64,000 nt of DNA from positions 372,001-436,000 of the forward strand of contig OZ287075.1 in NCBI GenBank assembly GCA_965645245.1, read 5' to 3'. Under the pieces are notes generated by a model. It was not told the DNA's origin. It saw only the letters and a list, made by a program, of their open reading frames with translations, and did no database searches. This DNA comes from Massalongia carnosa. Its lineage: Eukaryota. Positions 45,621 through 54,730 of the stretch are shown piece by piece. Made by a program: the position numbers and the translations under genes. Each line of letters starts with the position of its first letter. Position 1 is the stretch's first letter.

Positions 45621-46243
45621 ACACATCCACCCAACTCAGCCATACAACTCAAAATGCTACTCCACTACAAACATCGGGGTTTTTTTTCAATAATTCCTTC
45701 AGTACTACCTCCCATATTTTGATGCTATTCATACTTTTGGTCATCTTCAACTTTCGATAAGCTTTGGTTTGTTTAGCCAACTTACCCAGTGCTAAAGAAT
45801 ATCACTTTTCCCATGCGATCATTCGATCCTTTTTCCTGAGCCTCCTGATTCTATCTATCACGAATCATTGATCGAGCCTTTCGTGCAATAAGTATGCCCC
45901 CGATCTGAAGTACTTATTGCTCTCTCGTTTGCGTGCTTTTCGAACATTTTCGGCCTTTGTTTGTTGATCCCATCGTTGTTCGAGAAGTTCTCCTTTTCGG
46001 ACTTCCGAAACAGCCCCCTCTGACAAATTTTGCTATCATTTGTGTAAGTTCATCCGAACAACGGGAATGCATCATAATGTCTGCGGCTACTGTACTCAAT
46101 TGTCTGACAGTTCTAGGGGTCTCTTGTATTGATTGAATCGACGAAGGTAGGGTAGTCTCGCGGGGGGGTGGTAAACTCTCTCTGACCTTTTGAAGAACCA
46201 CCTCTGGATTATATGGCAATAGGCCGGTTTTTCTCTATGCAGA

Positions 46244-46394
46244 TACGCCGCGCAACGGGTCGGGTTTCTCTACTGAAAACCCAACCCGTTTGTGGCGAAC
46301 CCTATGATTTTTGGTGTCCGGGTTGGGTTTTGAAAGAAAACCCCGGTGGCGAAAAAGCAATTTGTGGCGAAAACCCAACCAGTTGCGCGGCGTA
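46244..46394. mobile_element. 151-bp MITE, hAT-type (8-bp TSD)
   Basis: TIR TACGCCGCGCAAC is perfect over 13 bp and extends to about 24 bp with 2 mismatches. TSD TATGCAGA at 46236-46243 and 46395-46402. Removing it restores the pogo frame. Confidence 0.9.
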
Positions 46395-47022
46395 TATGCA
46401 GACGTAATCGTTGTTGATTTGAAGGCCTCTGCCCGAAATGTGTTGAATGCAGCTAGAAATTCCACCTTCGAGAACGTTTCATCACCGTTCTGAATGGCCT
46501 TATTGATAGCCTCGGAATGCCAATGCTTTAAAGGCTGAAACATACATACATCAAGCGGTTGCAATAAGTGAGTGGTAAGTGATGGTAATCCAAATGGAAT
46601 AATATTATGAGCGTCACAATACTCTAAAAACTCACGAGTATGATGAGATCCATGTCCATCCATAATCAACAATCTCCATGCCCCCTTTCGAATGTTTCGA
46701 GAGTGTTTATCGAAGTGTTTAATCCATTGCAAGGCCAGCCAGTCATTTGAATAACCTGGTTCAGCAGTAGTAATAAGAACATTATCGCTAAGATCTTTGA
46801 GGAAAAAGGGAGCGAGAATGCTGATACCAGTCAAAATCAGCATAGGGGAAATGTCTCGTCTAGTTCCATTGATACATTCCACTCCGGTCAGTGATTCTCT
46901 GTTTAATGGATCGTTATTATAGATCCTTCGGTCTTTTGATGCACGGACTATCCAATCACTACGTGCCATGCCAATGCGATACCCGGTTTCGTCAAAATTC
47001 CACTGATCTTGATGATCTATGC

Positions 47023-47193
47023 TGTAACGGTTCGACCAAGCGTGGTGCGGACGGCAGGACCTACAGCGAACATAGCAGGAGTCCCAGTTATAGTAGAATA
47101 GAGCTTGGTCTGCGGACTAAGTATTGTGCCTTTTGGTCGGGAAGGACAGGTGGCGCAATGGTAGAAATCTATTCACTATCTCGCTTCGTCACA
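47023..47193. mobile_element. Solo LTR (171 bp)
   Basis: TGTAAC...GTCACA ends; 5-bp TSD TATGC at 47018-47022 and 47194-47198. Removing it restores pogo 'EYSIDHQDQWNFDETG'. Confidence 0.88.
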
Positions 47194-47666
47194 TATGCTA
47201 TACTCATCAATCACCTCTTTTTATTTTGTAAAGTGAGCCATTAGCAACTCCAAATCATGCGCATTTTTTCGCTCAACAGCTAGAGGCTTTCGTCGAACTT
47301 TGAATAAATCGGGTTAACGATTTAACCATCTCTTGGTCCAATGCGACCCGATCAAAGGAGGCGGTTCCGAAACAGGAGCTGTTTGACGAAGAATAGAATT
47401 TGCTGCGATTTCTACCATGTGCAATCGGGCAGCTATGTTCAAAGAGTCCAGTTTCTTGATATACATATATAGGGCCGACTCTTGATCAGGTTTCAGACGT
47501 CTAGTATGCAGTCCTCGTATCTCTGATTTAGATGGGGCCCCATGATATCGAGAACGAAGTCTTTCTCTAGGCACTTCAAATTCTCGTGCAATTGCTCGAA
47601 GTTTCGCGTTTTTCCGCGTGTTTAAGGCGTCAATAGCCCTCTTAATGCGACTTTCGATTTCAGTAT

Positions 47667-49832
47667 CCCTCTCGCTGTCATTCTAGCACCCCCCCCCCAA
47701 GCTAATCTATATTGGACTAGCTTCCGCACCGATGAGTCATCAGAACATTAGTTTTCTCTAGAGTGTTTGCGCGTTTGTTTACTTTTCAAAGAATACTATT
47801 CGGTCATTCAATCAAAATAAATCACATAAATTACTATTCTTCTAGCTTCGGAATTGATATTATAAGTATGACGCTCAATGAAGAAGAAATCCCGAGTGTA
47901 TCAGACAAATCTCCCATTTCAGCGAAGCAACATAAAATAAATCGCAAAAGAAGTGTTCGGGATATTTTAATCGACCTTCCCCCTATTTCCTCAAAATATA
48001 CCCCCATTCGGGTTGAAAACAGGCCTTTTGTTCCGCTCGTTGAAAACGATTCTCGAAATCCTTTGGGATTATTTCGGTTATTTATAACAAGGCAGCTTTG
48101 TCGTATCATCGCAAATCATACCAATATCAAGGCAAATAACTACATGGAAAAGGAGAAGGAGAACAATCATCGGGTTTGGACTGACACTACTGACTCGGAA
48201 ATTGAGGTTTTTTTGGGCATATTAATTCTTATGGGACTCGATCATCTACCTGCTACAGAGGATTATTGGAATCAACGTCCTGACAAACCAGTTATCATGC
48301 CTATTCTGTCCGCGATGTCGCTTGGTCGATTTCAACAAATCAAACGATTTTTGAAAATCAATAATGGACAGACTGAGCCTATCGGACTTGGTCAAGGACC
48401 TGATTGGTGGAAGAAACTGGAACCGTTGGCTACTGATTTCCGAAAGACTTCATTGAAACATTGCAGACCAGGAAGTATGATATCTATAGATGAACAGCTG
48501 GTGTTATTCAAGGGCCGTTCTCGACATACCTTGCAGATTACTACAAAAAGTGCCCATAAAGGATTTAAAATCTACAGTCTCTGTCAGGATAATTATCTGT
48601 TGTCATTTATGTTTGCCTCGAAGAGTAGCAGAATAAGTGAATTGAAAACAGTCAGACAATTGGGATTTTTGCCAAAAGATAAACTAACTCCTAGTGCTTT
48701 GCTAGTGATTCAGTTATGTAAAGAACTTCCATCCTCACTGAATTATCATCTTTTCTGTGATAATTTCTTTACTAGTACGAAATTATTCAAGGCACTTCGA
48801 TCAATCGGAATAGCTGCCAGTGGAACTGCTAAAAAGGGCTCGGGCTTTCCAGAAGAATTGTTGGCCATACGGGACGTCACTTCAAAAGGAAAAGACTGGG
48901 GTCTTCAGGCCCATATGGTGGTCGACGATAAGGTGCTTTGTATGGGCTGGGTGGATAATAATGGTGTGCAGTACATGACCACCGGTCATTCTCCTCAGGA
49001 CTTGTACGAAATGCACTATATAAATCCGCACAAGAGATATGGAATTCCCGAGACCTCTCTTCAACCTATTGTATCGTATTTCCCATCAACTCTGGCTCAC
49101 TCCATTCCCTTGCTCAATCAAGAGGTTCAACGGCCCTTAGGATTACCGATACCAGCCCCAATCAAAGAATATAATCTTCATATGTGGGGATCGGATGGAA
49201 ACGCTCAGCAACGAGCGATTTACTCATACAATCGTCGAACGGATCGTTACTGGTGGCCTTTGTTCATTTTTATTTTAGATGCAGCCGGATTGAATGCCTA
49301 AAAACTTTACTCGCTGAACTCTTTCGATTCCGAGGAGATAAAATTTACTCGTTCTGAATTTCTTCGTCGGATTGCTCTTGAACTGATATCAAATCAAGCG
49401 GGCATCAGGCCCGGCTCATCAAAGATAAGCATCAATACCACGATTGATGCTTTAGTACCATCTCCCATTCATCATTACGTTCGTCTTGAAGGCAGAAAAA
49501 GATGTGTGCAATGTAACGCCGAGAAAAAACGACCTTCAAAGCGGAAGGGAGAGCCACTGGCTGAAATAAGTGTCGATGGGCGTAAAAGAAGGCGAAGGGG
49601 TGCTCAGACTATATGGGCTTGTGGAGGATGTAATCCAATCAGGCCCTGCTGTAAGAAAGCCAGCTGTTGGGAAGCTATTCATATGATAGGGGACGAGTAA
49701 ATAGGTATCTGATACTCCGTACAACTTCTTGTGAATAGGAATAACATTGATTGGTCAAAAGTTTAAGGTTTAGCGCTTTCTAACCAACAATGGTTTAGCT
49801 TGGGGGGGGGTGCTAGAATGACAGCGAGAGGG
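47667..49832 (+). mobile_element. Full-length piggyBac-like transposon (2166 bp) with a non-TTAA target
   Basis: 38-39-bp TIRs CCCTCTCGCTGTCATTCTAGCAC(n)AAGCTAA at 47667-47705 and 49795-49832, differing only in C-run length. Flanked by AT on both sides. Confidence 0.92.
47868..49700 (+). pseudogene. piggyBac-type transposase (DDE_Tnp_1_7-like) with one premature stop
   Basis: Motifs 'MSLGRFQQIKRFL', 'SIDEQLVLFKGR', 'FCDNFF', 'YNLHMWGSD'. TAA at 49299-49301 (NA*KLY). The frame continues into a Cys-rich C-terminal domain (CVQC...CGGC...CCKKASCWEAIH) ending at 49700. Confidence 0.88.
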
Positions 49833-50601
49833 ATATGATTCAGGCATAGTGGTGATGGACGATTTGGGTTGTATGGCTGGCTAGCACTAAGCGAGGCGAA
49901 CCGAGCGATGTGGCCGGTCATCATCAAGCAATCATAGGAGCAATCAACGGAGGTCTGAAAGGACTGAAAGGGACGCATTGGAACGACCTTCTAAGCAAAC
50001 ACAAATGGATGAAAGGGACAAATGGCAAAAAGACTGTTTGATCAAACTGATCACTTATTGATAGAGACACAAGCAGCTGGATCGGGCCAAGCGATTATCT
50101 ATATAGACTCCTAGAGAGGGCACCTTTTGCTTGTTTCCTTTCTGCATCTTTGTTATTTTCTAGTGCATATGGCCGCCCCATTTCCAGTACTCTTCTGCAA
50201 ACGAGCAGTAGCACTTCTGTCGTTTTAGTTTTCTATTGGATGCTATTTACATCTCCTTGCCTTAACTCATGCAGTTTTCTAGAGTTTCTGCGGTCAACCA
50301 CTCTCGGTACACTCTCTCGACATAAGGGAAAGATGTACTTAAAGGTAGGTAGGCGCATCGAGCATATGACTGAATACTCGACGTGATTGTGGTACACTGA
50401 TCAGCAATCCGGATACGAAGCTATGATATAGACGTCGTAAAGCATCACCTAACTCCACACCGCTATCACGCTTACCAGTGCCAGGCTGCGTTACTGTATA
50501 CCAAATTAGCAAGTATCTCAAAGTAACAGAACTCACATTTGGTAATTCCCGTTGAACAAGGCGCTAGAGATTAGTCCGCTGACTGTTTAGCGCAGGCAAT
50601 C

Positions 50602-51955: not shown

Positions 51956-54730
51956 TTACATACACACATACACTATAGCAGACCTTGTGGACATGACTAG
52001 TTTTCTAATAAAACTAAGAGTCCGTGCCAGACAACCCCCCGGTGCACAATCCCGAGCAGCTGCATCGAACGCTTCAATCATTGGTCCATACATGATATCT
52101 GGATCCTCATTCTCAAAAGTGCCAGTAAAACATCCATTCCGGTATGGAAATAGAGTATCTCTTATCTTTCGGGCGACACCCTTGACATGCTCGAAGGATG
52201 GTGGAAACCAGGCAAGGAGATCCTCGATCTGAATTTTATCCATTTGCCCTATCTTTACGAGTGCAATGTCCTCGTAGGTTCCACCATACCATTTCTGCAG
52301 TAACCTTGGAACTTCCTTCAGTTTTTGACCAGACAACGACCACCCGTGAATGATGCAGACCCACAGAAACACGTAGAAAAATGACTCAAGGTCATGCCGA
52401 TAAGTGTGTATGAATCCTTTCTTCTGTTTCAACACTTCAATCGCCATGAATTCCATCGTGCCAGTTCGATGCCTGGCACCGCTAGGCATACTACCCCGCT
52501 CTTTCGCAAGGTCGAGGTCGATCAACATGCCCTTGTGACTGATTCCTGGACTGTCGGTGATAATGATGTTGTTCTCAGAGATGTCGCGATGGAGGATGTT
52601 TCCTTTGTCGTAAAGAGACTTATGTGCTTTTATGGCATCGCGGCATGCCTCCAAGAGTTCCCTGATAGATCGAAAGTCGCGGATTGACCGGCCTGGCGGT
52701 GATATGACAAGGTAGCAGAGGATGCGATTGTTGAAGATGTCGGTATTCGTTTCGTATGGACTAGCTGTCTGATTGTTGTTGGCCGCGACTGGCGCACTGA
52801 TAATGTTTTTGTTATGGATGGATGCCTGGCTATTCAATCTCAACCTTTTGGTGGAATCTCTACCATCGTCATTGGCTTTCCGTTTCTGTGAAGCACTTGG
52901 AGTGCCCCTAAGATTATAGAAACTGTTCGATCTTGGTGGTTTAGGAACATCTCTTCCATCGTCGGCTTTTCGTTTTTGTGAAGGACTTTGCATGCTCTCG
53001 GGACTACGATGACTGTTCGATCTTGACCTTTTCGCTTCATCTCTTCCGTAGCCGCTGGCTTTCCGCTTCTTCGTTGAAGTGTCTTGAGTGATCTCTAGGC
53101 CACAAAGACGGTTGACTGATTGGCTGATCACTTTGTTGAGTGCTTGGTGGACTGATTGTGATTGTGTGAAGGATGATGAGGCGCTGCATGTGTGAATTTT
53201 GAATTTGTGTGGTTTGCCAAAGTGTAATCCGCTGCGCAGGTTGGCGATACTGGTAATCTGCTCGTGGGCGAAGATTTCAGCGACACCCTCCACTCCCCGC
53301 TCCTAGGCCAGCTTAAGCAGCTCTCCTTCTACTAGTCGGTTGTCCAAGCGCCATGACAGCTTGACGACATATTCCCATGACTCGGCGCTAGCACTCTTGG
53401 CCCGGTAGCAGACCGTGCCTCGACAGACTACCGTCCGCTGGTACGCAATCGGCTCAGGATCAAGTTGTAGTCTTCTCTCGCCTATACCACTGCTCTCTTT
53501 AACGGTGATGAATTGGTCATTCTTGTGGTGCTCGACGAATGTATCCAATCCAAGCTCAACGTCAGACATCATGAGATAGCCTGCGATCACCTGGACGAAT
53601 CTTTCAGGTTGCTTATGGATGTCAAACTCAGTTGAGCTGTACGGCCCAGACCGGTCGAATACCCAAAGTTGCATCCGCGTAATACGAATTGTGAACCCGT
53701 GAATGAAGCGTCGAGTTGGTTGGCTGGCGAATACTTCTCGTGCATAGCCAGCAAGCTGTATCAGTAAAGGCTTGTCCTCGAAAGGGCCTTCCTTGAGTTC
53801 CCCTATCACCCATACGTCTCTCCAATTATGTTCAGGTGTCGGTGCAGGTGTTGGTGCAGGGGCAGGTGCTTCTTGGTGTCTCTTTCGAACGAGCAGATCC
53901 AGTCGACGCTCCGCATCAGATCCAGCTAACGATCGATTATACATTGTGTAGTAGACGCCGCGTTGATCTGGAAAAAAATCGGATTGGAAGCGGAAGAACC
54001 AGTCTAAGACACGTGCCTGTCCTGGTGGGTTTGGAAAATCGGTCCATTTGCCATCAACATAGCGTGCCATTGTGGCCTGGAAGATCTTGTCAACCTGATC
54101 CACCTTATCTGCTTTATCGAAATATTTCTCAAAGAATCCGCCGACGTCCCGATAAGTGCAGGAGAAGATTTCTTCAAATATGCGACGGTCAACCAGCGCA
54201 TGCGTCTGCTCGCTCCCTTGCTGTGAGGCTGAAGAACGATTGATTGGGGTGTCTTGGTAGCCTGAATCGATTTGCTGTGGAGGGGTCGATGGAGTTCGTG
54301 CGATTAAGTCGAAGACAGCCTTCCAGATGGCTTCATCGGCAGCTTTGTCAATGACCAGTGTGCACAGTGGGACGATCCAATTTATGTTAAATCCACCCGA
54401 TCTGAGTTGAAGGTATATGACTGCGAGATCGTCTAAGAGAGTCATGTTCGAGATCTTGGAGAGTTCCCGAGCTGCTTCTTGAGCCAGCATTGTAGAGATA
54501 AATTGACGTGCCAACTCTCTGCCATCTGCATTGGTTATAGAGAGATATCAATCAGAGCCATCATGCTAGACCACACCATCACTTGAGACAATGCTCTTGG
54601 TGCTCTCGGGAGAGTTGGTAAGGCCAAGCTTGTTGCAAGCCGAACGAAATGACTGTCGAAACGGCTCGAGCGCTCCACCTATCGGATGGCTCGCGATAAC
54701 TTGGATCTCTTCAGCAGAGAGTTCGCCCAT
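51956..54730 (-). pseudogene. FunK1/Sgk2-type fungal protein kinase with one in-frame stop
   Basis: ATG 54730 'MGELSAEEIQVIASHPIG'; intron 54526-54576. Motifs 'QPTRRFIHGF', 'WVFDRSG', 'CRGT', 'HRDISENN', 'LIDLDLA', 'RTGTMEFMAIE', 'HDLESFFY'. In-frame TAG at 53303-53305. Confidence 0.9.

Follow-up and report, generated by a model that had tools for sequence, protein, structure and literature searches.

How does a transposon that resembles piggyBac come to lie between flanks without TTAA, and how many bases does it add to its target? The question is raised by one locus in the window, the whole stretch of 64,000 nucleotides analysed here. Canonical piggyBac duplicates TTAA via 4-nt staggered cuts, and 4-bp ATAT variants have been reported. 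The TTAA duplication is treated as a defining piggyBac trait, and structural work connects it with seamless excision (PMC7351741). The same fold and catalytic triad with a 2-base addition at TATA offer a natural test of whether the length of the stagger, the choice of target and an exit without a scar are coupled, and the scar-free exit of piggyBac may work differently in this fungal branch.

The element, its host gene and its transposase

The element is a DNA transposon of the piggyBac superfamily, a member of a family designated F1, and occupies 47667..49832 on the plus strand (2166 bp), with long copies and end matches elsewhere in the genome. Its junctions read CAGTAT-CCC at 47666/47667 and GGG-ATATGA at 49832/49833 (hyphens mark the joints); TTAA is absent, and both can be read directly as the preliminary description had given them. 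The left terminal inverted repeat (47667..47706, plus strand) starts with CCCT, is about 40 bp long and contains a run of C, and the right one lies at 49794..49832 on the minus strand. For 31 bases the inverted ends match perfectly, and apart from one difference in the C-run they continue to about 40, while the arms 47664-47697 and 49802-49835, which include the TAT and ATA flanks, are 100% complementary.

The interrupted gene is a pogo-type transposase on the minus strand with HTH_Tnp_Tc5 and DDE_1 domains, and the element sits five codons inside it, both as originally claimed. The first five codons, including the start codon at 49847, are found at 49833..49847, and the remainder (HTH, DDE_1) at 46235..47666, where two small insertions interrupt it. 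One of these, at 47023-47194, is a TGT...ACA segment of 172 bp that has a 5-bp repeat and looks like a solo LTR; the other, at 46244-46395, is an element of about 150 bp with 30-bp inverted arms. The genes adjoining the F1 element are fungal; elsewhere in the window, a fungal protein kinase frame (Pkinase_fungal, 51956-54547, minus strand) is split by one stop near 53303.

The transposase gene of the element spans 47868..49700 on the plus strand, with 610 codons in open copies, the residues D208, D298 and D443 and a Cys-rich C-terminal region. The piggyBac identity first suggested for it is upheld by the domain, the triad and the predicted fold. PF13843 (DDE_Tnp_1_7) is the sole Pfam family that passes (E 9e-53); a profile search against the PDB returns piggyBacs only, namely the Trichoplusia ni (T. 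ni) enzyme (6x67, E 1e-59) and piggyBat (9c0f, E 8e-59). The predicted model (pLDDT 89.8) matches the folds of 6x67 (E 6e-24) and 9c0f (E 5e-22), followed by Tn5 at 2e-3, and the DDD triad aligns in register to T. ni D268, D346 and D447. The pattern CxxC...CxxC...CC...C...H is present in the sequence and the profile of the transposase aligns to the piggyBac C-terminus, where a Cys-rich domain is a candidate feature. As for the ends, the first C is conserved in piggyBac elements (PMC5381638), and the CCCT of F1 fits the C-C-Y start of their inverted repeats if the adjacent T derives from the target. By protein and ends, F1 is a piggyBac, but one that lacks the canonical TTAA duplication. It shares with T. 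ni piggyBac and piggyBat PF13843, the DDD triad, the fold, a putative Cys-rich C-terminal domain, the CCC ends and a palindromic AT-rich 4-bp target, at about 20% structural identity, but the target is TATA instead of TTAA, two bases are added instead of four, and the residues at the Y283 and K290 positions are replaced.

Copies, flanks and empty sites

The F1 terminal motif has 104 end matches in the genome and its reversed control has none. F1 comprises about 50 near-identical copies, at least about 40 of which are long matches at 96-100% identity. In a comparison of 29 copies, each differs from the family majority at 1-10 positions, and 17 retain the open 610-aa frame. Judged by this similarity, F1 is a recent burst in which natural open copies exist, and these make a direct assay possible. 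The copy in the window carries a stop at 49299-49301 and is indeed one nonsense codon away from an open frame; repairing it, as had been proposed, is unnecessary given the natural open copies, and four differences separate this copy from the family majority: the stop and three others, among them a Gly-to-Trp substitution that lies two positions ahead of the third catalytic Asp. F1 substitutions show no strong C-to-T bias (29/75), unlike the heavily mutated look of relatives in other genomes (P0013, P0016, P0028, P0035, L183 and L190), which may explain the survival of F1 in this genome.

The flanks are nearly uniform over three positions. In 96 distinct F1 ends, AT adjoins the terminal CCC in 94, with TAT in 91 and CAT in 3 (T at -1 in 94, A at -2 in 94, T at -3 in 91), and position -4 is mixed (A16 T18 G25 C37). 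A second family in the genome, F2, is intron-bearing, has 95 end matches and shows TAT at 80/82 ends; smaller families show it at 13/14. No TTAA flank is found at any of the 96 F1 or 82 F2 ends. When both sides of a copy are considered (43 F1 pairs), 41 share a 2-base repeat only, one shares 2 or 4 bases, and a degraded copy shares a single base. The outcome that the preliminary description had named as refuting, the same 4-mer on either side, occurs in 1/43 pairs, with a chance expectation of about 1.2 from base counts.

Some copies have an unusual arrangement. Three pairs of F1 copies lie 25-40 bases apart (L181:4741-4780, L072:2693-2717 and L075:120-144), suggestive of local hopping or clustered target use, and the L072 and L075 pairs have flanks in common. 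Other pairs (L013/L076, L014/L163, L168/L169 and L029/L304) have one common and one different junction, or an F1 and an F2 element at one position across different copies of a repeat; such sharing suggests inter-copy rearrangements or target hot spots. A 195-bp derivative of F2 (L271) has both ends and the TAT/ATA flanks, as a miniature non-autonomous copy.

Filled sites leave the length of the duplication ambiguous: a single one reads TA-TCCC...GGGA-TA and mimics a TA duplication, and this is how the authors of PMC3864998 read their element. The two possibilities already dismissed in the preliminary description, a TA duplication with TCCC ends and a degenerate 4-bp duplication of the ATAT/GTAT type, are decided by empty sites. 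In uninterrupted copies of the host pogo, all 12 readable places are two bases shorter than both flanks summed, and 11/12 read TATA (a 13th row ended at the locus end). The empty form foreseen by the preliminary description was thus borne out in length in 12/12 and in letters in 11/12, and it is on these copies that we place the two copies of the duplicated AT (target T-AT-A) at 47665..47666 and 49833..49834. Its argument from the restored reading frame was weak alone, since the two insertions had disrupted this pogo copy anyway.

The same holds across the family: 11/11 F1 sites with an empty counterpart correspond to the element plus two bases, with all empty sites being paralogous repeats. 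Besides the window site, a systematic scan gives L013, L016, L018, L019, L022 and L026, and inspection gives L070 and the more diverged L029 (89% identity). L009 (at a TATG site) and L004 are adjacent copies, and here assembled contigs from public runs omit 2168 bases (2166 + 2), in 3/4 and 4/4 runs, respectively; the depth at these joints is high, so they are probably repeat paralogs, and the source sample itself may be among the runs. The runs labelled lichen metagenome contain DNA of this genome. For F2, two bases are added at 6/7 testable sites, where the call for the L338/L339 pair rests on a paralog at 82% identity, and none at the seventh, L168. Empty sites of TATA length are therefore found at 17/18 F1 and F2 sites and the shorter form at none. 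TA and 4-bp duplications are excluded for F1 and F2 because each predicts an empty site two bases shorter than seen; moreover, two F1 ends read GGG-ATG, which breaks a TA duplication, and a 4-bp duplication is at odds with the unconserved position -4 and its single matching pair. We give these two readings almost no credence. As judged from genomic sequence, the net 2-base addition at TATA is a lineage trait, genome-wide for F1 and mostly so for F2.

Two loci depart from this pattern. L168 sits centrally within TATATA and has a net duplication of 0, and 23/23 paralogs carry the hexamer; it could reflect two overlapping TATA registers giving a blunt product, or a rearrangement, the latter because L169 has one junction in common with it. 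L139, an older copy, has an apparent 4-5-bp repeat, and is not scorable for duplication length because its flank itself resembles the element end (microhomology). No empty counterparts were found for L028 (an ATAT/ATAT copy) and L017 (a TATG copy), whose immediate flanks are unique, and no long reading frame spans any joint in 14 unique flanks.

Cut geometry and excision

The preliminary description had left two options, a 2-nt stagger or a blunt insertion with TCCC ends. The net addition of two bases at TATA that both entail was borne out, and the two predict the same letters; homology of the termini speaks for the stagger, since piggyBac elements have CCC as their conserved end. We regard it as probable that joining of the CCCT ends takes place at T^ATA on each strand, with a 2-nt stagger that would duplicate AT. 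The fungal lineage would recognise the palindrome TATA, rarely TATG, and its two ends starting with CCCT would each be joined to the target two nucleotides apart, so that the stagger would duplicate the central AT and the added bases would originate from the target. That origin falls short of proof because no copy shows paired variation of the central bases, copies with both of them co-varying on the two sides having been sought and none found.

In the blunt alternative, the element would enter at TA^TA without duplication and its true ends would be TCCC...GGGA, as in Spy. It accounts for the identical letters at every site with two added bases, TATG sites included, and for the T adjoining CCC in 94/96 F1 ends, both exceptions being degraded; eukaryotic DDE elements without duplication do exist (Spy, PMC4122938). 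It requires, on the other hand, an extra terminal T outside the conserved piggyBac CCC in every family of the clade, and a 2-base deletion at L168, and we consider it distinctly unlikely.

If the 2-nt stagger is correct, excision would still pass through a hairpin, as in piggyBac chemistry, now with a 2-nt loop, and the complementary AT overhangs left behind would allow a seamless exit. A variant that differs from the staggered reading in the excision step only would keep the 2-base duplication but lose hairpin-coupled excision, with footprints left behind. A 2-nt hairpin loop would be strained, and the omega-loop contacts with which PMC7351741 connects the 4-nt loop of piggyBac are altered in the F1 clade, both of which speak for this variant; against it, though weakly, since these are mostly never-occupied sites, no footprint-like variant appears among pogo or other empty paralogs. 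We find the loss of seamless exit somewhat doubtful.

Relatives, the omega loop and known systems

The clade to which F1 belongs extends beyond this genome. A scan of other public metagenome contigs gave 80 loci, 11 of them at 34-46% identity. Termini were found at 9 of these 11, with 11 ends that each read TAT-CCCT, all at filled sites; two of the loci (L187 and L207) have a common flank and may be one insertion, and at L191 and L193 (at least 34% identity) the terminus was not found. Among distant relatives (23-28% identity), pairs of TTAA-CC occur at 21 of the 80 loci, one probably spurious, and these TTAA-flanked ends start with CCCT or CCCA. In other scans, no relative turned up among prokaryotic genomes or among viral contigs.

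The TAT-flanked elements group in a single clade that contains no TTAA row (FastTree 0.89; SH-aLRT 90) in trees whose root is an arbitrary distant protein; the SH-aLRT tree dropped 5/104 rows for gaps, four of them TAT rows, and L212 was counted as TTAA although its left flank is ATAA. The sister group includes fungal proteins, among them those of Morchella and Hirsutella, and at L206, its one metagenome member, no termini were found.

The comparison of the two kinds of rows points to the omega loop as the part to swap. In piggyBac, which melts TTAA, this loop (R275, Y283, K290) together with Y439 and N440 holds the 4-nt hairpin and the target (PMC7351741). R275, Y283 and K290 align to K215, Q223 and H230 of F1, and Y439 and N440 are kept as Y435 and N436. 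Among the rows covering the loop, an aromatic at the Y283 position is present in 16/18 TTAA rows (the exceptions being L205 and L210) and 0/14 TAT rows, and the same counts apply to a Lys-Pro motif. A change in the omega loop may be the cause of the shorter stagger. This correlation is a lead and no demonstration, because a single branch is set against distant outgroups (23-28%), the proline of the Lys-Pro motif is also absent from piggyBat, and the aromatic is also absent from the sister fungal proteins. A wider proposal, that a widespread fungal branch of piggyBac has shifted its strand-transfer geometry, by way of the omega loop, from a melted 4-nt TTAA to TATA, cut bluntly or with a 2-nt stagger, and has kept seamless excision, is offered tentatively.

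The nearest precedent is Ti_tr1 of Tuber indicum, a truffle element described in PMC3864998 as piggyBac-like, TTAA-less, with PF13843 and of unclear classification. Like F1, it is fungal, encodes a PF13843 transposase, has long inverted ends (52 bp, against about 40 bp in F1) and shows no TTAA duplication; its TA duplication was called from one locus, whereas the empty sites of F1 exclude TA. Ti_tr1 may be the same phenomenon misread. PMC5381638 mentions rare piggyBac-like TTTT, ATAG, TTAT, ATAT as well as ATAA sites that its authors blame on mutation; those are 4-bp and single-copy, while the F1 trait is family-wide and 2 bp. In PMC4122938, ISL2EU makes a 2-bp duplication, typically AT, and Spy makes none, the footprint types of our two readings of F1, but both are related to PIF/Harbinger, and the F1 transposase is a piggyBac with PF13843 alone. 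Tc1/mariner-type elements combine a TA duplication with DDE_1 or DDE_3, and F1 has neither.

Repbase has subgroups named piggyBacA and piggyBacX. PMC5751038 lists four fungal piggyBac references in Repbase. The largest mining study (PMC13461360) applied a TTAA filter that tolerated up to two mismatches, and so did not address the TATA trait. The available text of PMC4455052, PMC5718144 and PMC5751038 contains nothing on a TATA-type target. Our full-text literature search found no 2-bp AT duplication in piggyBac, with PMC3864998 as the one near precedent; it covered articles, and prior curation in Repbase or Dfam is possible. The joint claim of an undescribed system with an intact, scar-free natural transposase on a new target is made with comparable reserve. 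A piggyBac that targets TATA would widen a much-used gene-insertion tool.

A second odd family was observed in the same genome. Its 1.3-kb elements have CACGCGG...CCGCGTG ends (L143:455-1780, L151:513-1840, L165:3691-5006 and L344-L359), encode a DDE_3 (Tc1/IS630-type) transposase of about 395 aa and give 216 end matches. A 5-bp duplication of variable sequence, and not TA, flanks 13/16 fetched copies and 3/4 others, all at filled sites. CAC ends with a 5-bp duplication are reminiscent of Transib. According to PMC5751038, Transib is absent from fungi; this family resembles it in ends and duplication, but its protein is Tc1-like.
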